Virus record (IMG/VR): IMGVR_UViG_3300033148_001052
Location: 1-56,684 of that record
DNA from: a virus
Reading direction: 5' to 3' (one strand)
Length of the DNA: 56,684 nt
A program made the translations under genes and the position numbers. Numbering within the stretch: position 1 is the first letter of the stretch; every line of letters starts with the position of its first letter. The notes beneath the pieces were generated by a model. It did not search any database, was not told the DNA's origin, and saw only the letters and a list, made by a program, of their open reading frames with translations. This document shows positions 2,276-31,153 of the stretch, in pieces.

Positions 2276-3826
2276 TCAATACCCGAAGAAATTATCAAAT
2301 TGTTCTTGGTGTACTTCTTGTTTAATAAAGACACCTCTCTCTGCTGCTGTAGTCATTCGTGGTCTACTCATCAATGCATAACGTAGCGCGTCATACGCAT
2401 GGTCTGAAGCTGTAGTATCTACATCCTCACTGTTAGTAGTAGAGATTGGTAGTGTCTCCAATTCCCTAACTATATTCCTACAGGTTTTAAATATCTGTAG
2501 CTTAGGTCTTCCACTAGCAGCAAGCTTTAGTCTTTCGTGGATTTGTATCTTACCGGCGATTCTATTCTTATCGGACGGTCTGAAGGAACACCCTGCTTGG
2601 TTAAGGGCTTGTCCAATAGTAGGGCCAGTGTATCCTGTTCTGTTCCATGCAGCCGTGTCAAGTACACCTGTGACATTAGACACCTCTCCAAGTTCCAGTT
2701 CCATAATAGCATCACCTAATGCTTCTCCTGTCAGCCCTTTAGAATATAGTTCACGATATACAACAATCGTGTTGTCATCAGGATCTACTGCCATCCATAG
2801 CACAGCAGAAGGAGATGTATATCCATAGTCAGCTCCCTTAAACCTAAACCAAGAGTTAGGGATTTCAAAAGGATCTACTGTATGCATCTCCCTAATAAAC
2901 TCAGGGAATGCAACACCCTCATTAATATTCCAATCACCATTCAGAAGTCTTCTCTTACTCACTTCATCTAGCGAGTTAAGCATCTGCTCATATCTACCAT
3001 CAGCATGTAGATGGGGATTGTCTTTAAGGAGAGCAGGAATAAACCTTCTAGTTAGTCCATCCTTTCCTACGAAAGATGTGTTAGGCTTGGCAGGGTCTAT
3101 ATATCTCTTCTTTACCCAAGCATGTCCAGCACCACCGGGGTTAGCTGTACAACGTAAATAAACTTCTATGTCTGGGTCTGTTGTTCTAAGTCGAGAGCCT
3201 AGGTATTGCCAAGGAAACTCTGTAGCCATGTGGGTGATTTCATCAAAGCCTATAAAGCTATATGCTTGTCCCTGATAGCGATATACATCAGCATCTCTAT
3301 CCAGATAGCCAAACTCCATCTTGGCTCCACTAGGGAAATGCCATGTCTTCTCTTGTTCTTTAAACTTAGCTCCGGGGAAAGCCTTTGGATATAGCTCCCG
3401 GCTCTTATCAATAAGTTCTCTCAGCTCCGGCATTGTCTTCCTGAGTATCAGGGCTCGGTGTGCTGCCTTGTGTGCATATCGAAGAGGCTCTACTATGAGA
3501 GCATAACTCTTACCGCCACCAGCAGCACCACCATACAATACATCGTTTTCTGGAGCTGAGAGGAAATCTGTTTGTGGGCCTTCGTTAGGTTGGAACACTA
3601 TGTTCTCGTCCACTATTCTCTTACTAGCAGCAGGAAGCTCTTCCCTTTCTGCGTCTGTCATAACAGTGCTCACAATACTGTCAGACTTTCTAACTGTTTC
3701 TATCTTTCTCTTTAGAGCAGCCTTCTCTACAAGCTTCTTTCTACGTCTTTCCTTAGATGCCTTAGCTCTAATAGCGTCCCTAGCTTGCTTTACTTTAGGG
3801 GATTCTGTTCTGTTATCCCTGCTCAT
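2276..3826 (-). CDS. terL: Terminase large subunit
   Basis: Walker A LYGGAAGGGKS, Walker B-like SFIGFDEITH, 516 aa, upstream of the portal gene. Confidence 0.9.
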   Translation of the reverse strand: MSRDNRTESPKVKQARDAIRAKASKERRRKKLVEKAALKRKIETVRKSDSIVSTVMTDAEREELPAASKRIVDENIVFQPNEGPQTDFLSAPENDVLYGGAAGGGKSYALIVEPLRYAHKAAHRALILRKTMPELRELIDKSRELYPKAFPGAKFKEQEKTWHFPSGAKMEFGYLDRDADVYRYQGQAYSFIGFDEITHMATEFPWQYLGSRLRTTDPDIEVYLRCTANPGGAGHAWVKKRYIDPAKPNTSFVGKDGLTRRFIPALLKDNPHLHADGRYEQMLNSLDEVSKRRLLNGDWNINEGVAFPEFIREMHTVDPFEIPNSWFRFKGADYGYTSPSAVLWMAVDPDDNTIVVYRELYSKGLTGEALGDAIMELELGEVSNVTGVLDTAAWNRTGYTGPTIGQALNQAGCSFRPSDKNRIAGKIQIHERLKLAASGRPKLQIFKTCRNIVRELETLPISTTNSEDVDTTASDHAYDALRYALMSRPRMTTAAERGVFIKQEVHQEQFDNFFGY

Positions 3827-4010
3827 ATTCGTTCTTATATTTCTTTCCTAGCCCAACATGACTAATATATCGCCCTGTTAGGGTGGACAAGTATTCACTG
3901 GCTTGTCTTACAGGCATACCCTGAGAGATGTATTCATACACTTCCTTCAGGCCATCTAGTTGTTCTTGTACTGGAGAGCCATCTGCTTCATATCCATAAG
4001 CTACATGCAT
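3813..4010 (-). CDS. Small HTH-like protein (65 aa)
   Basis: ORF between the terS candidate and terL. Segment MPVRQASEYLSTLTGRYISHVG looks like a helix-turn-helix. Confidence 0.5.
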   Translation of the reverse strand: MHVAYGYEADGSPVQEQLDGLKEVYEYISQGMPVRQASEYLSTLTGRYISHVGLGKKYKNEYEQG

Positions 4011-4444
4011 TAGTCTTCTTCCTCTGTGTAGTCCCCTTCAATAGGTTCCAATACTTTCTTAGTTGGTATAAGAAATACCCCGCCACCACCTTTACTCTCC
4101 ACCTGTAGGGTTTCCTTCTTACCTAAGCCAACCCTGTCTAGCAATGTTGTAGAAGCCATTAGCCTGTCCTTAATTCCCGGCAGAGGCTTAGTAGCTGTGA
4201 TAGCATCTGTTATAACACTGGCAGCAGCAGGAGCATGTGCAATAAGCTTAGCTTCTGTGAGCTTAAGAATTTCTTTACTTAGAGACCTAACAGCACCATA
4301 GATGGATGTATCTGTATACCCAGCTTCCTTAGCTAACTGTAAAGGGGAAGCTGTGCAACCTGAGTTCCAATATAGCTGTAATAGCTTCTCTTGTTTCTCT
4401 GAGAGATTTCTATCACTACTCTGAGCTACTACACTCTTAGGCAT
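4010..4444 (-). CDS. Terminase small subunit (putative)
   Basis: 144 aa, first gene of the terminase operon. HTH-like LQLAKEAGYTDTSIYGAVRSL and an acidic C-terminus. Confidence 0.55.
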   Translation of the reverse strand: MPKSVVAQSSDRNLSEKQEKLLQLYWNSGCTASPLQLAKEAGYTDTSIYGAVRSLSKEILKLTEAKLIAHAPAAASVITDAITATKPLPGIKDRLMASTTLLDRVGLGKKETLQVESKGGGGVFLIPTKKVLEPIEGDYTEEED

Positions 4445-4793
4445 ACTTAGATATCCTTAAATAATTTATTAATATTACTTAGTTTCCTTTAGACAAACTT
4501 AAGCCCACTCTTAGTGATATATAGTTATTAACTAAGTATACTAAGTAGTGGTTATTAACCTAGTAGGACTGTTGTAGCTCCTGTTCTAGGTGACATATAG
4601 CTTTATCAGGTATCAATGTCTAGAGCTTCTGCTCTATATCACTTTAGGAGAACCTGTTTATCTCTGCTTCCTTGCGAGAGTCCGGGCTTTTATGAGAATG
4701 CCTATTAGACTATTCTCTCAGACCACTATATATGCTTATCCTTGGGTATTTGAATTGTGTGTTGCCTTAGAATTCTCCTAAAGCAGTAGAGAC

Positions 4794-4837
4794 TTTTTAC
4801 AATCTCTACTTATAACGTGTAACTAGTTGGACAAAAT
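4794..4837 (-). promoter_or_regulatory. Conserved 44-bp element, copy A, about 350 nt upstream of the terS-terL-portal operon
   Basis: tttttacaatctctacttataacgtgtaactagttggacaaaat matches 51446-51489 at 41/44 positions. The minus-strand reading contains TTATAAGTAG followed by the stem GTAGAGA..TCTCTAC. Confidence 0.5.
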
Positions 4838-5097
4838 AGGATAATAAAGGAAATTAATTGTAATTAATATACTAATTAGCATTTATGTTAAGAATACAAG
4901 GTTAACAAAGGTGATTCTCTGTATTTTATATACGGTATGGTTAACATTGGTAATTAGGGATTCCATTGCGTGTCTGCATATACATATACAGGGGAGGGGG
5001 GTGGCACCTATGCCCCCCACGTTCACCTCGCCACCATAGCCACACTGAATACGGGGAGATTCTAAGGTATCCTTATGATATATGGGGAATATATGGC

Positions 5098-5113
5098 TAT
5101 AACATTGTTATAA
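5098..5113. promoter_or_regulatory. Degenerate copy of the recurrent palindrome (TATAACATTGTTATAA)
   Basis: Perfect 16-bp palindrome with the same AACATTGTT core, 5 bp from the parS match. Confidence 0.4.
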
Positions 5114-5118
5114 CTAGG

Positions 5119-5134
5119 TGTTCCACGTGAAACA
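5119..5134. promoter_or_regulatory. parS: parS-type centromere site, exact match to the consensus TGTTNCACGTGAAACA
   Basis: Sequence reads tgttccacgtgaaaca, in the large non-coding region. Confidence 0.7.
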
Positions 5135-5257
5135 TTGAATACGTGGTTAACACTTGTGAGAGTTAAAGTGATGTCTTAAGTTACAGCTCTAAGCTATTGA
5201 AAGTGCCCTTAAATGAGAATGATTATCGTTACACTATTCAAGACATCCCTTGATTAC

Positions 5258-5275
5258 ATTGACAATATATTGACA
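5258..5275 (+). repeat. Direct repeat ATTGACA x2 with 11-bp period
   Basis: attgacaatatattgaca, about 125 bp upstream of the sigma54-like element. Confidence 0.5.
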
Positions 5276-5385
5276 CTCACTAGGTTAGCATCCACTAACT
5301 AAAAGCGTCAACTATTTGACGGGTTGTGTTAGTATATTAGGACATTCTAATGCGTTATTGGGCTATTCTCTGCATCCTGAAACCT

Positions 5386-5401
5386 TGGCACGATAGTTGC
5401 A
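5386..5401 (+). promoter_or_regulatory. Sigma54 (RpoN)-type promoter match, TGGCACG-N4-TTGCA
   Basis: ttggcacgatagttgcat: GG and GC dinucleotides at the canonical -24/-12 spacing, with full flanking consensus. Confidence 0.45.
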
Positions 5402-5522
5402 TTTAGCAATCCTTATGCCAGCTTTTACCCCCTCGCTACACGAAGCTATATATAAGGAGTAGAATCACCCAAACGAATAGCCCTCACAGCTCCTCAATTG
5501 CTCTGTACGCCCCTCAAATATT

Positions 5523-5542
5523 TTATAAGGGGGTAGCCTAGG
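5523..5542. repeat. 20-bp exact inverted-repeat partner of 12956-12975 (TTATAAGGGGGTAGCCTAGG)
   Basis: The reverse complement of 12956-12975 is identical. Confidence 0.85.
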
Positions 5543-5670
5543 GGGTAGTGACATCGTGGATTCTACGGGCAGCCAGGGGGCAATTCAGGGTTTGCTAATA
5601 TACCCAAGGTTTTAGCTGTTTTGTGGAGTTGGCATGGAATGTGCTATTCCTTAATATAAGGGAAACAATA

Positions 5671-5694
5671 TCCTGTGAAACATCCTGTGAAACA
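5671..5694 (+). repeat. Tandem 12-bp repeat TCCTGTGAAACA x2 (iteron-like; contains the parS right half GTGAAACA)
   Basis: tcctgtgaaacatcctgtgaaaca, flanked by gaaacaatat on both sides. Confidence 0.8.
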
Positions 5695-5826
5695 ATATGG
5701 GTCATAAGCTCAGTTAATGGGGGTATAGAAAGAAACGTGTATACTTGGGGTGGAATTCCTGTATAGTTCGCTCTCCTGATATAATTCAGGACGGGCGGAA
5801 AGCCTGACACTTTCCAAGGTTTTAAG

Positions 5827-5841
5827 GTAACATTGTTACAA
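5827..5841 (+). promoter_or_regulatory. Recurrent near-palindrome GTAACATTGTTACAA (copy 1)
   Basis: Intergenic, 91 nt upstream of ATG 5933. Confidence 0.6.
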
Positions 5842-5854
5842 GGGTAAAAATAAA

Positions 5855-5891
5855 GGTTGCATTGGGAAATTGATTCCTGTAGGATGCAACC
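5855..5891 (+). other. Stem-loop in the leader of the first + strand gene (8-bp stem GGTTGCAT/ATGCAACC, 21-nt loop)
   Basis: Perfect inverted repeat read from the sequence. Confidence 0.4.
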
Positions 5892-5932
5892 TCAATACCA
5901 CTAACGGCCAATAGGCCACTGGAGAATACAAC

Positions 5933-6424
5933 ATGAACTATTTAGAAAACATCGCAGCATGGAAAATCGGTAACGCATCTAAGATTGACGCTGTTAGGGA
6001 TGCACTGTTAAACGGTGACGATGGGGGCGAGGCATTGGCAGAGGCATTAACAGAGGCGGTATCAGAATTTGTTATAAGCGAGGCGGACGTTAAGAGCTGG
6101 AATGCTACGCTCAACAGAGAGATCCACAAGGCGGCTCAATACGCTTGGGAGCAATCCACTGACAAGAAATTTGTTAAGGGCGCAGGGTATCAGGTGTTCG
6201 GATTCAAATGGCATAAGGCCGAAAGCGAGGTTGTATATGGTCTGGTCAATACCCGCAGCCATGCTCCCAAGGTGGACGCTGTTGAGAGTGAGGCCGATGC
6301 TACACCTGAACAGGCTCCCAAGGATAAGTTTCTCACCACTGTTGCCAAGTTTGCCGCAACTGCCAGCGACCAAGAAAAAGCGATGGTGGCGCGACTGATT
6401 GATACCATCATATCTAACCGCTAG
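5933..6424 (+). CDS. Hypothetical early protein (163 aa)
   Basis: ORF track. GGAGA 7 nt upstream of the ATG. Appears GC-richer than its flanks and sits between two non-coding regions. Confidence 0.7.
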   Translation: MNYLENIAAWKIGNASKIDAVRDALLNGDDGGEALAEALTEAVSEFVISEADVKSWNATLNREIHKAAQYAWEQSTDKKFVKGAGYQVFGFKWHKAESEVVYGLVNTRSHAPKVDAVESEADATPEQAPKDKFLTTVAKFAATASDQEKAMVARLIDTIISNR

Positions 6425-6583
6425 CCGCTAGCTAGTTGCTTTATGGTTGCCCTCGCCTTGAGGGTTCCCATAAGACAATTGTCTTAATGCTCTTTAACAG
6501 ATTAAGAACCACTGACATAGTGTAGGCTTTACAGGCCAAGCTATGCCTAGTGAGAAGTGCGACACCACCAAGTAAGCGTGGAT

Positions 6584-6598
6584 GTAACATTGTTACAA
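6584..6598 (+). promoter_or_regulatory. Recurrent near-palindrome GTAACATTGTTACAA (copy 2)
   Basis: In the non-coding region 6425-7028. Confidence 0.6.
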
Positions 6599-6736
6599 CA
6601 GATTCGAGAATTGATAGCCGGAAAAACTATGCTCTGAATGGGACAGGACTATACCCATCAACATAGATTAATAATGCCCTCAAATGGAGATTGGAGAGGG
6701 ACAGAGGACGGCCATATTGGTTCCTAAGAATTAAAT

Positions 6737-6986: not shown

Positions 6987-7001
6987 ACAACATTGTTACA
7001 A
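6987..7001 (+). promoter_or_regulatory. Recurrent near-palindrome ACAACATTGTTACAA (copy 4)
   Basis: 27 nt upstream of ATG 7029. Confidence 0.55.
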
Positions 7002-7512: not shown

Positions 7513-7713
7513 ATGAAACAATTATTGTTTAGTGTTACTAGGGGGTATAAGCTGGATTTAGATGGGCGTGATACCGATGAGATGATAGCTAAGATGATTG
7601 AGGCTGTTGAAAATAATGATACGCTGATAGATTACTTCGGTGATATGCTAGACCTAGAGGAAATCTCTGAAGTGGTACACTTTGAAGGTAATGCTTGGGT
7701 TGAAGGAGAATGA
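7513..7713 (+). CDS. Hypothetical acidic protein (66 aa)
   Basis: ORF track. GAGGAGA Shine-Dalgarno site. Confidence 0.65.
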   Translation: MKQLLFSVTRGYKLDLDGRDTDEMIAKMIEAVENNDTLIDYFGDMLDLEEISEVVHFEGNAWVEGE

Positions 7714-7714
7714 T

Positions 7715-7978
7715 ATGAGTTATACAGTATCAAGGGATGCTGCTGATGTGTTGTTAGACATAGCTATCACACATAAAGTGAATGCTATTAAACAACTGAG
7801 GCGCATCACTGGCGCAGGATTAAAAGAGAGTAAGGACGCCATTGAAGATAAGTTTATTGGTGGAGGTGTAATTACTATTGCAGCAGGTGGGGGGAAGGAC
7901 AGTATTATTGAGGACTACATCAAGATGCAGATGTATCAGGCTCAGGTGTTTGAGAAACTAATGGAGCTGATGGAATGA
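7715..7978 (+). CDS. Protein resembling the ribosomal L7/L12 C-terminal domain (87 aa)
   Basis: KVNAIKQLRRITGAGLKESKDAIE aligns with E. coli L7/L12 [24 protein letters not shown] (about 14/24 identical). GAAGGAGA Shine-Dalgarno site before ATG 7715. Confidence 0.6.
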   Translation: MSYTVSRDAADVLLDIAITHKVNAIKQLRRITGAGLKESKDAIEDKFIGGGVITIAAGGGKDSIIEDYIKMQMYQAQVFEKLMELME

Positions 7979-17575: not shown

Positions 17576-17773
17576 ATGAAAAGAAAGATGCCTGTGCCTA
17601 TTAAGCATATCACTACTAGGAGATTCTTATTAGGAGGACTATGTAATGCCAGTGAGTGTGGGCCAGCGGATTGTTCTAATTGCTCTTATGATTATAAGGA
17701 CAAAGGGGACAACACTATAACAAACAAAGAACTATGGGAGGCATTTAATAATGTACTTGATTACAGACCTTGA
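17576..17773 (+). CDS. Small four-Cys protein, family member 4 (65 aa)
   Basis: LLGGLCNASECGPADCSNCSY...LWEAFNNVLDY. Confidence 0.6.
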   Translation: MKRKMPVPIKHITTRRFLLGGLCNASECGPADCSNCSYDYKDKGDNTITNKELWEAFNNVLDYRP

Positions 17774-18926
17774 GACTTCTGTGAAGAATGTTGGGGAGGG
17801 AGCAATAGGAACTAACAAAGCTAATGTCCATCATCCAGATAATAGGATTGTTATGTATGGCTTTAAGATGGAGGGGAAGCCAGAAGTTACAGGACATTAT
17901 AAGGAGTCTCATGTTAAGGGCATGACAATCCCACCTGAGAAATGGAAGAATGTTGACATATTAGTAGGACACAATGTTAAGTTTGACATTCAATACCTAT
18001 GGAAGTTCCATCCTGAACTCAAGCCTTGGTTTAATACAGGGAAGATATGGGACACACAGTTGGCGGAGTACATCCTGTCAGGACAGACACATCTATACCC
18101 TAAGCTAGACGATTGCTCTGTTAAGTATGGAGGTACACTTAAGGACGATAGGATAAAGGACTATTGGAATTCAGGTGTTGACACTGAGGACATCCCTGAG
18201 CATGAGCTTAAGGAATATCTTGAGTGGGACTTGAAGAACACAGAGACAGTGTTCCTACATCAAGTAGCTAAGGCAGAAGAACTAGGGATGATAGATTTGA
18301 TATGGTTCCAGATGGATGCCTTGCTATGTACAACAGAGATGGAATGGAATGGTATGTACTTCAACAGAGAGACAGCCGAGGTGTTGTCTGATAAGGTAGG
18401 GAGGCAGAGGGATGCGTTGCTAGATAAGCTAACTATTGTCATGGAAGCTGCGGGTATTCGTGATGTCAATCCTTTAAGTAATGACCATGTATCCTTGTTC
18501 TTCTTTGGTGGAGAGCAGAAGTATAGAGCTAGGGTTCCTATTATGGATGAGGTTACAGGGATGCAGAAGGTGTATGGCCCTACAGCTATGAAGGCAGGGC
18601 AAGGTAAGTTTAGAATAGAGGACAGGGTAGAGAGCATCAAAGGGTTTTTAGTTCCTAAGAAAGAATATGAAGCTAAGAAGCCGGGGTTCTACAAGGTGAA
18701 TGATGAGGTGATGAATGACATCAAGGGGGACAGTGAGCTGGCGTTAGATTTCCTTAAGCTAAGACAGCTTAATAAAGACATCAATACATATTACAAGGGG
18801 TATAGTGATTTGGTGTGGCCTAATGGTTTGATACATGGTAGCTTGAATCATTGTGCTACTGCGACTGGTCGCCTATCTTCAACAAAGCCCAACATGCAAA
18901 ACATATCTAGCTATGAGGAGGAATAA
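17751..18926 (+). CDS. Family A DNA polymerase, part 1 (3'-5' exonuclease plus N-terminal polymerase region)
   Basis: Exo I ITDLET, Exo II HNVKFDIQYL. Ends right after TGRLSSTKPNMQNI. Confidence 0.85.
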   Translation: MYLITDLETSVKNVGEGAIGTNKANVHHPDNRIVMYGFKMEGKPEVTGHYKESHVKGMTIPPEKWKNVDILVGHNVKFDIQYLWKFHPELKPWFNTGKIWDTQLAEYILSGQTHLYPKLDDCSVKYGGTLKDDRIKDYWNSGVDTEDIPEHELKEYLEWDLKNTETVFLHQVAKAEELGMIDLIWFQMDALLCTTEMEWNGMYFNRETAEVLSDKVGRQRDALLDKLTIVMEAAGIRDVNPLSNDHVSLFFFGGEQKYRARVPIMDEVTGMQKVYGPTAMKAGQGKFRIEDRVESIKGFLVPKKEYEAKKPGFYKVNDEVMNDIKGDSELALDFLKLRQLNKDINTYYKGYSDLVWPNGLIHGSLNHCATATGRLSSTKPNMQNISSYEEE

Positions 18927-19324: not shown

Positions 19325-20188
19325 ATGAGCCAGATTAAAGAATGCTTTGAGTCTAGGTATGGGGAGGATGGTGTCATTATGGAGGCTGACTTCTCTCAGC
19401 TAGAAGTAATTGGGCTGGCCTTTATATCAGGAGACAAGCAGCTAAAGAAAGATATTGAGGATGGGTTGGACAGTCATTGTCTTAATGCAAGCCTATTGTA
19501 CAATGAAGACTATTCTTTTATTAAATCTAGGGTGGATGCAGGGGATAAGGAATGGATTAAGAAACGTAAGATGAGTAAGGCTCCGGGATTCCTCATCATC
19601 TATGGTGGTGGGGCTATGGCTATGGCTAAGGCTACAGGGCTACCACAGGCTCAGTGTCAGGAGTTCATAGACAACTACTACTCTAGGTATTGGAGAGTGA
19701 AGGAATGGCAGGACGAGGTGATACAGGACGTTAGAGATAGCAGGGTGATGACTACCAAGCGTACTGCTGCTGGATTCCCTGCTGGTCAGGGGGAATACAT
19801 ATCCATCACAGGTAGAAAATATGTATTTACAGAGTATGATGCACCTGATTGGATGATGGAGAAGACAAGCTTCTCTCCTACACAGATGAAGAACTATGGT
19901 ATCCAAGGGTTTAGTACAGGAGACTTGGTTCCCTTGGCACTAGGTAAGTTATATAGAAAGATTAAGGAGAGGTTTAATGAAGAAGTAAAACTAATCAACA
20001 CCATCCATGATAGTGTGTTGCTTGACTGCCCTGTAACATGTTACAAGGAAGTGGCACAGGTTGTTAAGGAAGTATTAGAAGATACACCAGCATACTTTGA
20101 GGAGATATATGGGATTGAGTTTCCCTTAGAACTCAAGGTTGATGTAGAAGTTGGAGAGACTTGGGCAACTAAGGCTTCAATTAAATAG
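19325..20188 (+). CDS. Family A DNA polymerase, part 2 (motifs A, B and C)
   Basis: Motif A IMEADFSQLEV, motif C-like TIHDSVLLD. AGGAGA Shine-Dalgarno site. Confidence 0.85.
   Translation: MSQIKECFESRYGEDGVIMEADFSQLEVIGLAFISGDKQLKKDIEDGLDSHCLNASLLYNEDYSFIKSRVDAGDKEWIKKRKMSKAPGFLIIYGGGAMAMAKATGLPQAQCQEFIDNYYSRYWRVKEWQDEVIQDVRDSRVMTTKRTAAGFPAGQGEYISITGRKYVFTEYDAPDWMMEKTSFSPTQMKNYGIQGFSTGDLVPLALGKLYRKIKERFNEEVKLINTIHDSVLLDCPVTCYKEVAQVVKEVLEDTPAYFEEIYGIEFPLELKVDVEVGETWATKASIK
20033..20046 (+). promoter_or_regulatory. Recurrent palindrome GTAACATGTTACAA (copy 11, intragenic)
   Basis: Inside the 3' end of polymerase part 2, 150 nt upstream of the -35 at 20197. Confidence 0.5.
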
Positions 20189-20798: not shown

Positions 20799-20877
20799 GG
20801 GGGTGATAGGTATCGACAGAAGTAAAAGCCTACATGGAAGCTTCTGGAAGGGAGTTCGATTCTCCCCACCTCCACCA
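20799..20877 (+). ncRNA. tmRNA tRNA-like-domain (TLD)-like RNA, 79 nt, with no anticodon arm and no mRNA-like domain
   Basis: 7-bp acceptor stem GGGGGTG/CACCTCC with a G3-U70 wobble, A73, encoded CCA. T arm GGGAG-TTCGATT-CTCCC. The 5' segment GGGGGTGATAGGTATCGAC parallels the tmRNA 5' consensus. A CAGAAG/CTTCTG helix is capped by an 18-nt loop. Confidence 0.65.
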
Positions 20878-28912: not shown

Positions 28913-29127
28913 CATATACAGCACAGTGTCTTGATGAAGACTGTGTGAATGAAGAGGGTGATGTAACAACATTCACTTATGAAGCTAAGATAACAGATAG
29001 CACCACACCACCATGCCCTAGGTGTGAAGGAGAAACTAAGAAGATTATTACAGGGGTGGGGATGGTTAAGCTGTATGGTGTTGGGTTGTACAAGAGAACC
29101 TTGCGTGATAAAGGGGATTGGGCATGA
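28906..29127 (+). CDS. Zinc-ribbon protein, FmdB-like (73 aa)
   Basis: C..C(x27)CPRC. GGAGGA Shine-Dalgarno site. Confidence 0.55.
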   Translation: MVAYTAQCLDEDCVNEEGDVTTFTYEAKITDSTTPPCPRCEGETKKIITGVGMVKLYGVGLYKRTLRDKGDWA

Positions 29128-29504
29128 GCATCGTTCAAACCAATGTTAACATCTATAATATCTATCCTTCAATGGAGGTGTTTAATAAGGACTTCTTTGG
29201 TCAGGTGAAACAGAGCTTGATTGATAAAGGTTTCATTAACCCTTTGATTGTAGTTCCTATGGATGGACATGAGTGGACTACATATAGTGAAGATAATCCT
29301 GACATGTTAAAGTTCCCTCCCTTACAGAATATAGATGATGTAGTATTGCAAATACGATGTGGTAATAACAGGTATTGGGCAGCAAGGCAACTAGGATTTA
29401 GAACAGTTCCTATTATTAAATGTGGAAGTATGAAGGAGGCCAGTAAGATGTGTAAGGCACAACAGAAAGAGATGAAGCAATGGCAGGAGGCTGGTGAGTG
29501 GTAG
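29124..29504 (+). CDS. ParB N-terminal-domain (ParB/Srx)-like protein, paralogue 1 (126 aa)
   Basis: LQIRCGNNRYWAARQLGF matches the GxxRxxAA box. ATGA overlap. No HTH or C-terminal dimerisation region is evident. Confidence 0.65.
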   Translation: MSIVQTNVNIYNIYPSMEVFNKDFFGQVKQSLIDKGFINPLIVVPMDGHEWTTYSEDNPDMLKFPPLQNIDDVVLQIRCGNNRYWAARQLGFRTVPIIKCGSMKEASKMCKAQQKEMKQWQEAGEW

Positions 29505-29854
29505 AAGAGACAGGCATAGCAATACACCTATTACAGCCGATGACCCCTCCTAAGGCAATTGAGGAGCTTTCAGCTATACTTAAGACGGAGGACATTGAAC
29601 ATCCCATCGTAGTATATAAGACAACTAAGGAGGAATGGGCAGAACATAAGAAGGCTTATCCATATATCTATGACTCTCCTGATATTGAGGGGGAGATAAT
29701 GCAGATACGAGCAGGACATAACAGAGTTGAGTGGGCTAGGAGACAAGGAGATACATACATCCGAGCATTGGTTTATAATAATTTAGAGGATGCAACAGAA
29801 GAATGCAAGAGACAGATGAAGTGGCACAAGAGAAAACACGGAGCATTAATTTAG
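29498..29854 (+). CDS. ParB N-terminal-domain-like protein, paralogue 2 (118 aa)
   Basis: MQIRAGHNRVEWARRQG. GTG start 7 nt after CAGGAGG. Confidence 0.6.
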   Translation: MVEETGIAIHLLQPMTPPKAIEELSAILKTEDIEHPIVVYKTTKEEWAEHKKAYPYIYDSPDIEGEIMQIRAGHNRVEWARRQGDTYIRALVYNNLEDATEECKRQMKWHKRKHGALI

Positions 29855-30045
29855 AATGTACTATTCTTGGGGACGATAAAGATGGTGACACAATAGGTAA
29901 TGTTGTTAGGGTAGAGCTACCCCTAGACCACCAAGATGTAGCAGAGACTAAGTTTGAAACATTCATTGGAGAATTAGCGGAGGTGTTAGGTGAATACTTT
30001 GAAAGCGGAGAACAGGAACCAAAGAACACTGTCTATCCCCATTAA
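29803..30045 (+). CDS. Hypothetical acidic protein (80 aa), overlapping both neighbours
   Basis: ORF track. Overlaps of 52 and 56 nt make it uncertain. Confidence 0.4.
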   Translation: MQETDEVAQEKTRSINLECTILGDDKDGDTIGNVVRVELPLDHQDVAETKFETFIGELAEVLGEYFESGEQEPKNTVYPH

Positions 30046-30379
30046 TCAGCTTGATATGCTTGAGGGGATAGAGAGTAACATCTTTCAAGCTAGGGTGTAT
30101 GCAAGCATAGAGAAGGGAGGGATGATAGAACCATTAACAATAGCTTGTCTCACTAATGATGAATGGGGAGAGAGTTGTTCAGGATGCAAGCCTCCCCCAA
30201 CAGAATACAAGCATGTATACCTAAGGATACAAAGAGGAAACAATAGATACAGAGCTGCTAAGGAGATGGGATATACACACATTGATTGTAATCTCTATCT
30301 AAATGTAGCTGAGGCTATTGAGGCAGGTAATCTACAGAGGAAACGAAGTAAGCGTTGGAAAGCTTTGTTACAAAACTAA
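29990..30379 (+). CDS. ParB N-terminal-domain-like protein, paralogue 3 (129 aa)
   Basis: LSIPINQL box and LRIQRGNNRYRAAKEMGY. GTG start 6 nt after GGAGG. Confidence 0.6.
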   Translation: MNTLKAENRNQRTLSIPINQLDMLEGIESNIFQARVYASIEKGGMIEPLTIACLTNDEWGESCSGCKPPPTEYKHVYLRIQRGNNRYRAAKEMGYTHIDCNLYLNVAEAIEAGNLQRKRSKRWKALLQN

Positions 30380-30392
30380 GAGGACAAGAGAT

Positions 30393-30638
30393 ATGGAAAG
30401 CTATGTAGTAGTAAAGAATAAAGATATTTACCTGTTCCAAGAGCAGTGTAATTATCAGATGGGGAATGGTTATGTTCCTCAAGGTGGGCTAGTTAAGGGA
30501 GACTATGAGTTCTTCCAAGCCTTTACTCTAGACGAAAAAAAGGAGGAAGTTCCTAAGAACATTCCCCCAAAGAAGAAAGCAGGTAGACCAAAGAAGCCTG
30601 TAACCAATATGTATAACGATGAGATGGGAGGAGGCTAA
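30393..30638 (+). CDS. DUF1737-like protein with a C-terminal AT-hook (81 aa)
   Basis: GNGYVPQGGL core, then KKKAGRPKKP. ATG 30393 lies inside the track ORF. Confidence 0.5.
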   Translation: MESYVVVKNKDIYLFQEQCNYQMGNGYVPQGGLVKGDYEFFQAFTLDEKKEEVPKNIPPKKKAGRPKKPVTNMYNDEMGGG

Positions 30639-31153
30639 TGCCAAGTAAAGAAGAGAATATCAAAGAGTATTATATCGACCAATACAAACAGATGCATTCT
30701 AAGAAGGTGTATGGTATTAGCTCCAAACATCTAGTGGGAGCTATTGCTCCTCTAGTCAGGGAGTTTAATAGTGTCTTAGATTATGGTTGTGGTCAATCTG
30801 AGTTTCTAGATAAGCTACCTAATGAAGTGAAGTATCGTTATGACCCCGCAATTAGCAAGCACAACAAACAACCCAATCCCGAAGATGTAGATGTGGTCAC
30901 ATGTCTTGATGTTATGGAGCATGTCCCTGAAGAAGCTGTGGATGAAGTGCTTAAAGATATTCATAGGCTGAGTGACAAGGCTGTGTTTGTTATTAGTTTA
31001 GTGGAAGCTGCATGTAAACTCCCTAACGGGGAGCAAGCACATACAACAGTCCGAAGTAAAGCATGGTGGACTGAGCGCATCGAAGCTGTGTTTGGTAAGA
31101 CACAGAGGATGAAGCATAAGCGGAATGGAATTCTGTTCCTAAAAACTTTCTAA
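30638..31153 (+). CDS. Class I SAM-dependent methyltransferase
   Basis: Motif I VLDYGCGQS, then DVVTCLDVMEHVPEE. 171 aa. Confidence 0.75.
   Translation: MPSKEENIKEYYIDQYKQMHSKKVYGISSKHLVGAIAPLVREFNSVLDYGCGQSEFLDKLPNEVKYRYDPAISKHNKQPNPEDVDVVTCLDVMEHVPEEAVDEVLKDIHRLSDKAVFVISLVEAACKLPNGEQAHTTVRSKAWWTERIEAVFGKTQRMKHKRNGILFLKTF

Follow-up and report, generated by a model that had tools for sequence, protein, structure and literature searches.

The genome of an uncultured virus, recorded in IMG/VR as IMGVR_UViG_3300033148_001052, carries a single copy of the 16-bp palindrome TGTTCCACGTGAAACA, which has the sequence of parS, the chromosomal centromere of bacteria. A preliminary description of this stretch of DNA (56,684 nt, hereafter the window) had reported an exact parS 16-mer in a large non-coding region, and our search of the window bore out both its sequence and its position. 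The palindrome agrees with the consensus TGTTNCACGTGAAACA at all 15 specified positions, with 0 mismatches, and the earlier estimate that about 1e-4 such matches would arise by chance was right (113,368 positions x 4^-15). When both strands of the window were searched, no other parS-like site within 3 mismatches was found, the second match being the same position read on the opposite strand. The window has one site only, and the multi-site clustering near the origin that is typical of, though not required for, chromosomal parS was not seen. The 16-mer is presumably the same as the parS inside spo0J of Bacillus subtilis.

The two ends of the window overlap exactly over 114 nt, so that the assembly is circular and complete at ~56.6 kb. 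Judged by its sequence, this marine-type phage belongs to the HMO-2011-type podoviruses, as it possesses the hallmark genes of the group (large terminase subunit [TerL], portal, capsid, and family-A polymerase), the two-arm layout, and a size within the ~52-57 kb class. The window TerL was ~60% identical to those of Pelagibacter phages HTVC103P, HTVC104P, and HTVC115P (45-61% across cultured members) and 45-50% identical to those of the roseophage CRP series and Puniceispirillum phage HMO-2011, and matches in HTVC115P were found for the portal, capsid-region, and tail proteins. The known hosts of this phage group are alphaproteobacteria, which generally possess the chromosome partition system ParABS.

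In six related uncultured phages (TerL 48-70% identical), the equivalent region was found to contain parS, either exact or with one mismatch. The site is exact in L001, L221, L143, and L015; it has one mismatch, with the inner 14-bp palindrome intact, in L164 and L227. In L001, the nearest IMG/VR relative (TerL 61-66%), the exact TGTTCCACGTGAAACA lies between the first early gene and the gene of the putative small terminase subunit (TerS), and the sites of L143 and L164 both lie 1.2 kb upstream of TerL. A TerL-profile scan added 80 relatives, giving 864 kb of family sequence in all, in which 2 exact parS sites were found against ~0.0016 expected. Two carriers were drawn from a large protein collection, namely L221 (TerL 70%), which among the relatives with usable contigs is the closest and has its exact parS in a 1.44-kb control region, and L227 (TerL 65%), which carries AGTTTCACGTGAAACA. 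The roseophage-type L015 (TerL 48% identical to that of the window and 77% to those of CRP-603 and CRP-2) has the perfect palindrome TGTTTCACGTGAAACA in a gene-poor stretch that opens its long TerS-side operon. A scan of metagenome contigs with the window TerL gave only 27-28% matches. All carriers are uncultured and most of their contigs are partial; each of them has exactly one parS site.

When the seven 16-mers were anchored on the site, their mean identity was 93%, versus 31% for the ±60-nt flanks (the better of two orientations), the latter being a random level. The hexamer at the core of the palindrome provided a second line of evidence. CACGTG occurs once in the window, where ~9.4 copies would be expected, and this one forms the centre of parS; in six of the seven carriers (the window and five of the six others), the parS core is likewise the sole CACGTG of the locus. 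The site has therefore been kept against an avoidance of CACGTG. GTTAAC is also scarce genome-wide (5 found against ~17.5 expected, 3 of the 5 in the control region), and the scarcity of the two hexamers suggests restriction-site avoidance. The recurrence of the 16-mer amid random flanks, together with the retained CACGTG, argues for selection and against chance, and these comparisons indicate that the 16-mer is under purifying selection. We also considered an RNA element at this position and rejected it: no Rfam family was found in 4400-6000, the palindrome would fold as a weak AU-rich hairpin with no U-tract, and conservation is at the sequence level with no compensatory changes.

Our favoured explanation, to which we give just short of an even chance, is that selection has maintained the 16-mer as a working chromosomal centromere of the bacterial type, which acts in cis only and loads host ParB. 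Taken by itself, the identity of the ligand can be stated with more assurance: it is probably host ParB, the most economical candidate since no phage parS-binding protein was detected. Neither a ParA/CbiA-type protein nor a full-length ParB, an integrase, or a plasmid-type initiator was found in the scanned open reading frames (ORFs) by comparison with Pfam and PHROGs, a scan that covered most early-arm ORFs of at least 100 aa and the packaging genes. A self-encoded ParABS cassette of the P1/N15 type, which would show a ParA and a full-length ParB beside the centromere, was likewise not seen among these ORFs.

On this explanation, the parS on circularised or concatemeric phage DNA would be recognised after injection by host ParB dimers through their helix-turn-helix (HTH) domains. 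The dimers would then bind CTP, close as clamps, and move by sliding along the control region around the site, and established ParB biology predicts that they would spread over a few kb of phage DNA. A ParB partition complex could in this way be assembled on phage DNA without phage-encoded ParA or ParB, and phage genomes would be treated as the host origin region is, being positioned or segregated by ParA, with loading of SMC also possible. Replicating or dormant unintegrated phage DNA might thereby stay on the nucleoid and reach both daughters of slow-growing hosts. From ParB binding through clamp loading to the downstream effect, we infer each step at the phage parS.

Among the possible pay-offs, we rank positioning or inheritance via ParA (possibly SMC) first, titration of ParB second, and modulation of promoters third. 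Positioning or inheritance of phage DNA may well be the main pay-off, although we put this somewhat below an even chance. It is ranked first because partition needs one site per genome and every carrier has exactly one. Lin and Grossman are said to have found in 1998 that a single chromosomal parS suffices to stabilise an unstable plasmid via host Spo0J/Soj. A further reason for this ranking is that integrase-less members would otherwise be without a means of persistence (PMC9038755). Binding of ParB to parS engineered into phage genomes has been described inside infected cells (PMC4697819, PMC3573128). A more far-reaching proposal, namely that supposedly obligately lytic, integrase-less marine podoviruses enrol in the host ParABS/SMC machinery and so attain a heritable, unintegrated carrier state without any gene of their own for it, is rather unlikely.

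Several observations weigh against the loading of host ParB as the function of the site. ParB clamps slide off free DNA ends, and loading would thus need closed or concatemeric DNA. It is not obvious what a lytic cycle would gain from partition, and the integrase-less subgroups of HMO-2011-type phages are thought to be obligately lytic (PMC9038755). The distribution of the site is patchy: nothing within 2 mismatches of parS was found genome-wide in cultured HMO-2011, CRP-1, CRP-235, and HTVC115P, and nothing within 3 mismatches in the TerS-upstream regions of CRP-603, CRP-2, and CRP-207. The hosts of several of these parS-less cultured phages almost certainly have ParABS. Among 27 uncultured relatives in which a G-rich landmark upstream of TerS (Table 1) was covered, three have a parS-like site within 400 nt, and the remaining relatives have nothing closer than 4 mismatches. 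From this absence in many relatives, it follows that parS is dispensable for the group. Its position within the control region also varies, with a distance to the landmark of 120-200 nt in the window, L001, L143, L164, and L227 and of ~1 kb in L221, and a distance to the first early gene of ~70 nt in L221 and 800 nt in the window.

In a TerL tree, the deep-branching clade of the window and an adjacent basal lineage have the site in four of six covered members (the window, L221, L227, and L001; L229 is without it), and L228 has an assembly gap where the site is expected. Sporadic carriers fall in the crown group (L143 and L164) and in the roseophage-type outgroup (L015). On this distribution, parS appears to be an accessory element that either is ancient and has been lost many times or has been acquired more than once. 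Conservation in related phages, on which the preliminary description had made its proposal depend, therefore held for the nearest relatives and failed for many others, including all cultured isolates checked.

The alternative that survives best, although we consider it doubtful, is that the site acts as a decoy: present in tens to hundreds of copies, phage parS would titrate ParB from the host origin and halt segregation and division, and in alphaproteobacteria the ParB-bound division regulator MipZ would leave the origin too. The evidence of selection on a ParB site applies equally here, as does the alphaproteobacterial nature of the known hosts, and a decoy requires no phage protein, which is consistent with the lack of a detected ParA or ParB. 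Toro et al. (in 2008) and Thanbichler and Shapiro (in 2006) are said to have found that, in Caulobacter, extra parS copies are harmful and ParB is coupled to division. Two other contigs, L071 and L084, hold parS at other intergenic positions, as expected if position were irrelevant, and a decoy would suit the lytic lifestyle (PMC9038755). However, there is one site per carrier, though additional 16-bp copies would be cheap and better titrators, and phages of Rhodobacteraceae and SAR116, hosts in which a decoy would be expected to succeed, are without the site.

An unlikely alternative is a regulatory role, in which host ParB would spread over the divergent promoters and damp or time early versus late/packaging transcription, or perhaps form a roadblock at an origin or packaging site. 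The parS lies between divergent transcription units, 8 bp separate it from the first early-arm copy of the TAACATTGTTA motif, the parS of L221 is ~70 nt upstream of the first early gene, and that of L015 is ~25 nt downstream of a promoter-like TTGACT-17-TATCAT; moreover, ParB of Pseudomonas aeruginosa represses parS-adjacent promoters (PMC5521831). Against such a role, the position of the site relative to promoters and genes varies between the window and L221 as given above, the effects of chromosomal ParB on transcription are usually mild, and a promoter scan of the control region gave predictions no better than those for shuffled sequence.

We consider it equally improbable that the reader of the site is a phage protein, such as TerS when packaging begins, a replication initiator, or a complex involving the phage's ParB-like proteins, with the identity to parS being convergent or co-opted. 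The parS lies amid phage repeats, with GAATAC/GGTTAACA units 2 bp away and GGAATAC iterons in L143 and L164, and it adjoins the family-wide G-rich landmark upstream of TerS; in addition, the phage encodes three ParB-fold proteins. Yet TerS, iteron arrays, and the landmark are common to most relatives, in which nothing within 4 mismatches of parS is found there; the window and L001 share the 16-mer although they have no early proteins in common; and it is very unlikely that an independent protein would have converged on all 15 consensus positions in each of seven lineages.

The three ParB-like proteins had been proposed in the preliminary description as possible partners of the site. The ORFs themselves proved to be real paralogs, 27-30% identical to one another with E-values down to 5e-11 and a common G(N/H)NR motif. 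Pfam ParB_N scored 23.8 bits on the first of them, under the 26.3-bit cutoff. An AlphaFold (AF2) model of a ParB/sulfiredoxin (Srx) ORF had a pLDDT of 87, and the best Foldseek matches were ParB-CDP 6sdk (E 5e-5), 7bnk, 7bm8, sulfiredoxin, Noc, and PadC, so that the modelled structure places the ORFs at 29118-30379 within the ParB/Srx (ParB-CTPase) fold. The proposed partnership fared less well. The proteins are 118-129 aa long, consist of the N-domain only, and lie 24 kb from parS; because they have neither an HTH nor a C-terminal dimerisation domain, they cannot read parS in the canonical manner. A Methyltransf_23 gene (30638-31153) lies just downstream of them, and the same layout of small ParB_N-like paralogs followed by methyltransferases recurs in a relative (L274, 271-2996), which carries extra methyltransferases. 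Phage ParB-CTPase folds are known to associate with methyltransferases (PMC12704722), which further argues against their being readers of parS, and ParB folds have been linked to DNA-modifying enzymes in the form of ParB-dependent T-dioxygenases (PMC13229309). The three paralogs probably concern DNA modification or anti-defence and are unrelated to parS, and their use of the site is unlikely. It is conceivable, as a bolder variant, that these N-domain-only proteins engage the N-domains of parS-loaded host ParB clamps and lock or poison them. Homologs are rare: a word-indexed profile search of a 5.8-billion-protein collection returned 9 proteins, none of them on a contig longer than 5.3 kb, and none was found in the fetched relative loci.

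The last alternative, that the 16-mer has no function and either arose as a palindrome by chance or is a neutral remnant of host DNA picked up by the phage, is very unlikely: at least 120 IMG/VR contigs hold an exact parS where tens are expected by chance (a rough estimate), and many relatives are without the site, but ~1e-4 are expected per genome, a neutral site could not recur at one equivalent place in seven diverged phages amid random flanks, the site is kept despite the genome-wide avoidance of CACGTG, and there is no host-like flanking sequence, the 16-mer alone being held in common.

If the site does load host ParB, as we tentatively propose, the arrangement may be compared with several known systems. 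It resembles the Spo0J/parS system of B. subtilis and the ParB/parS system of Caulobacter in its identical 16-bp sequence, its palindromic form, its location in a non-coding control region, and its conservation as sequence rather than as structure. It differs from the parS of chromosomal ParABS-SMC systems in residing on a virus as a single copy, and not in an origin-proximal cluster, and in the lack of a detected parAB operon on the phage, so that ParB would come in trans from the infected cell. Like the parABS of P1 and P7 and the sopAB of N15, it comprises a centromere-like site near the phage replication/maintenance region. Those phages, however, are stable plasmid prophages with their own ParA and ParB and private, non-chromosomal parS sites (with dispersed centromeres in N15), whereas the phage described here has the universal consensus of the host, and neither a ParA nor a DNA-binding ParB was detected. 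Parallels in arrangement are also offered by the Lin and Grossman plasmids and the P22 and lambda phages tagged with parS/ParB-GFP, foreign replicons that carry parS only and receive ParB in trans; these are artificial, whereas the present arrangement is natural and evolutionarily maintained. The ParB/Srx paralogs, for their part, resemble the phage ParB-CTPase-fold proteins (PMC12704722; PMC13229309) in having the N-domain fold, no DNA-binding domain, and methyltransferase neighbours.

In the full texts searched, an orphan parS of the host type that occurs natively on a lytic-type phage was not reported, which is not proof of absence; the same search did yield engineered parS phage tags, prophage-plasmid partition systems, and phage ParB-fold proteins. 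The novelty lies in the family-level conservation of parS without detected partition genes, the presence of parS on viral contigs being already not unheard of. Loading of host ParB would make this a natural viral co-option of the chromosome-segregation machinery through nothing more than a cis element. Pseudolysogeny or carrier states in abundant, integrase-less ocean phages would then have a possible mechanism, or alternatively the site would be a gene-free derailment of host segregation and division, and phage DNA could be imaged by way of a natural ParB tag. A host-type parS on a viral contig would also not be an automatic sign of host contamination or of a plasmid prophage.

Among the IMG/VR viral contigs with exact parS, some have clustered sites, including L017, L026, L040, L041, and L044 with 3-5 each; such contigs probably represent prophages of the plasmid type, or fragments of origin regions that were binned as viral. 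Exact sites were also seen on L071 (887-902, between polymerase-side genes and the exonuclease gene), L084 (2699-2714, past the ribonucleotide reductase [RNR] gene and just before a terminator-like hairpin), and L103 (12599-12614, within the RNR coding sequence), which are more distant relatives or contigs sharing only the RNR gene.

Table 1. Positions of the parS site and associated features in the window.
Feature	Position	Strand	Remark
Consensus chromosomal-type parS, TGTTCCACGTGAAACA	5119..5134	.	Single copy, exact match
Divergent non-coding control region, 1.49 kb	4445..5932	.	From the ORF map; between packaging/late arm (-) and early arm (+)
G-rich landmark, core GGGCAGG(A/T)G(G)CCA then G/C runs	4991..5020	.	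~100 nt from parS, on its TerS side
23-nt repeat unit GAATAC-NN-GGTTAACA-..-GTGA	5137..5159	+	Begins 2 bp past parS
Second copy of the 23-nt GAATAC/GGTTAACA repeat unit	4892..4914	+	78% identity to 5137-5159
TATAACATTGTTATAA palindrome	5098..5113	.	5 bp upstream of parS; first copy of TAACATTGTTA motif
TAACATTGTTA copy	5828..5838	.	Overlaps the -10 of a promoter-like site ~90 nt upstream of first early gene
Tandem 12-nt repeat with two GTGAAACA half-sites (5675, 5687)	5667..5694	+	
Putative small terminase subunit (TerS)	4010..4444	-	First gene of packaging arm
Large terminase subunit (TerL)	2276..3826	-	PHROG and Pfam matches; served as family marker
First early ORF, 163 aa, no known family	5933..6424	+	
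Three tandem ParB/sulfiredoxin-fold paralogs	29118-29504, 29498-29854, 29990-30379		End of early arm

As shown in Table 1, parS is contained in the single large non-coding stretch of the window, in which the strand switch and the GC-skew minimum are also located. The same architecture of the control region is repeated in L001, L221, L143, and L164. This region probably holds promoters together with an origin and/or a packaging site, and it is plausible that parS lies close to the replication origin. Searches with the control-region DNA against GenBank phages, in both near and distant modes, returned no relatives, nor did searches with the small flanking proteins in IMG/VR.

The G-rich landmark is present upstream of TerS in most of ~70 relatives, including a low-GC pelagiphage-like clade; it was located at 5618-5650 in L001, at ~640-690 in L143, and in most of L131-L210. 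The 50.9-kb Logan contig L225 terminates within it and several contigs terminate 150-400 nt away. The landmark may serve as a cos/pac site or as an element of the origin, or it may mark an assembly breakpoint. Its reading as a stable hairpin was rejected, as it folds no better than shuffled sequence. On its early-gene side are lineage-specific iteron-like repeats, namely TTTGGAATAC in L143 and L164, CTTTGGAG in L161 and L137, and GAATAC..GGTTAACA in the window; GGAATAC-type iterons also flank the parS of L143 and L164. The stretch of landmark and iterons looks like an origin or packaging site, with parS an add-on inside it.

The preliminary description had further set parS within a cluster of related AACA/TGTT elements. 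All the listed neighbours are present (TATAACATTGTTATAA and the GTGAAACA half-sites at the positions in Table 1, and GGTTAACA at 4900, 4939, and 5145), but the proposed kinship to ParB sites did not stand. The 11-nt palindrome TAACATTGTTA is a motif dispersed over the early arm, with 6 exact copies against ~0.1 expected (5100, 5828, 6585, 8135, 10265, and 12973), mostly in gaps between early genes from 5.1 to 13 kb, and near-copies at 6988 and 14140. The early arm of L001 has 5 copies (448, 1951, 2902, 3630, and 4483), and a copy equivalent to that at 5828 adjoins its first early gene. TAACATTGTTA is not a ParB site and is probably an early promoter or operator motif. The three copies of GGTTAACA, the only ones in the genome, all lie in the control region, and the element belongs to the 23-nt phage repeat. 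The GTGAAACA half-sites arise from one tandem duplication with no counterpart in the other six carriers, and their link to ParB appears weak from this comparison.

The early/replication arm occupies the + strand from 5933 to 31153 and encodes CobT, a CobS-like AAA protein, a DnaB-type helicase, family-A polymerase (PolA), a 5'-3' exonuclease, an HNH protein, class II RNR, and a methyltransferase. The packaging/structural arm, which begins with putative TerS, TerL, and portal, lies on the - strand and extends to the left of 4444 through the assembly junction as far as 31150. In a tblastn search, the putative TerS was 39-45% identical to the putative TerS gene of HTVC115P and to the equivalent ORF of L001.

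A few further observations on the window were made outside the control region. The family-A DNA polymerase is encoded in two ORFs (17751-18926 and 19325-20188, both +) with ~400 nt between them, in which it differs from cultured HMO-2011-type phages, where it has been published as a single gene. No group I intron was found at the Rfam gathering threshold, and the split could reflect an intervening element, a split gene, or a frameshift. For a 98-aa early ORF (7682-7978, +), Pfam gave a match above the gathering score (E 8e-7) to the ribosomal L7/L12 C-terminal domain. ARAGORN predicted no tRNA in the window; clusters of tRNA-like sequences recognised by eye between the control region and TerS of L001 (~6480-6640), L225 (~720-900), and L228 (~2720-3110) are absent from it.

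Finally, a 79-nt mini-tmRNA (20799-20877, +) was detected between an SSB-like gene and the exonuclease gene, with an Rfam tmRNA score of 66 bits against a gathering score of 47; ARAGORN makes no call there. It keeps only the tRNA-like domain, with its acceptor stem, T-arm, and CCA end, and 14 nt stand in for the entire mRNA-like/pseudoknot body. Its 3' 28 nt are identical in 44 bacterial genomes, including Patescibacteria, Clostridia, and Burkholderiales, and are not host-diagnostic. The mini-tmRNA could be a decoy for SmpB or alanyl-tRNA synthetase, or a tRNA-like element.

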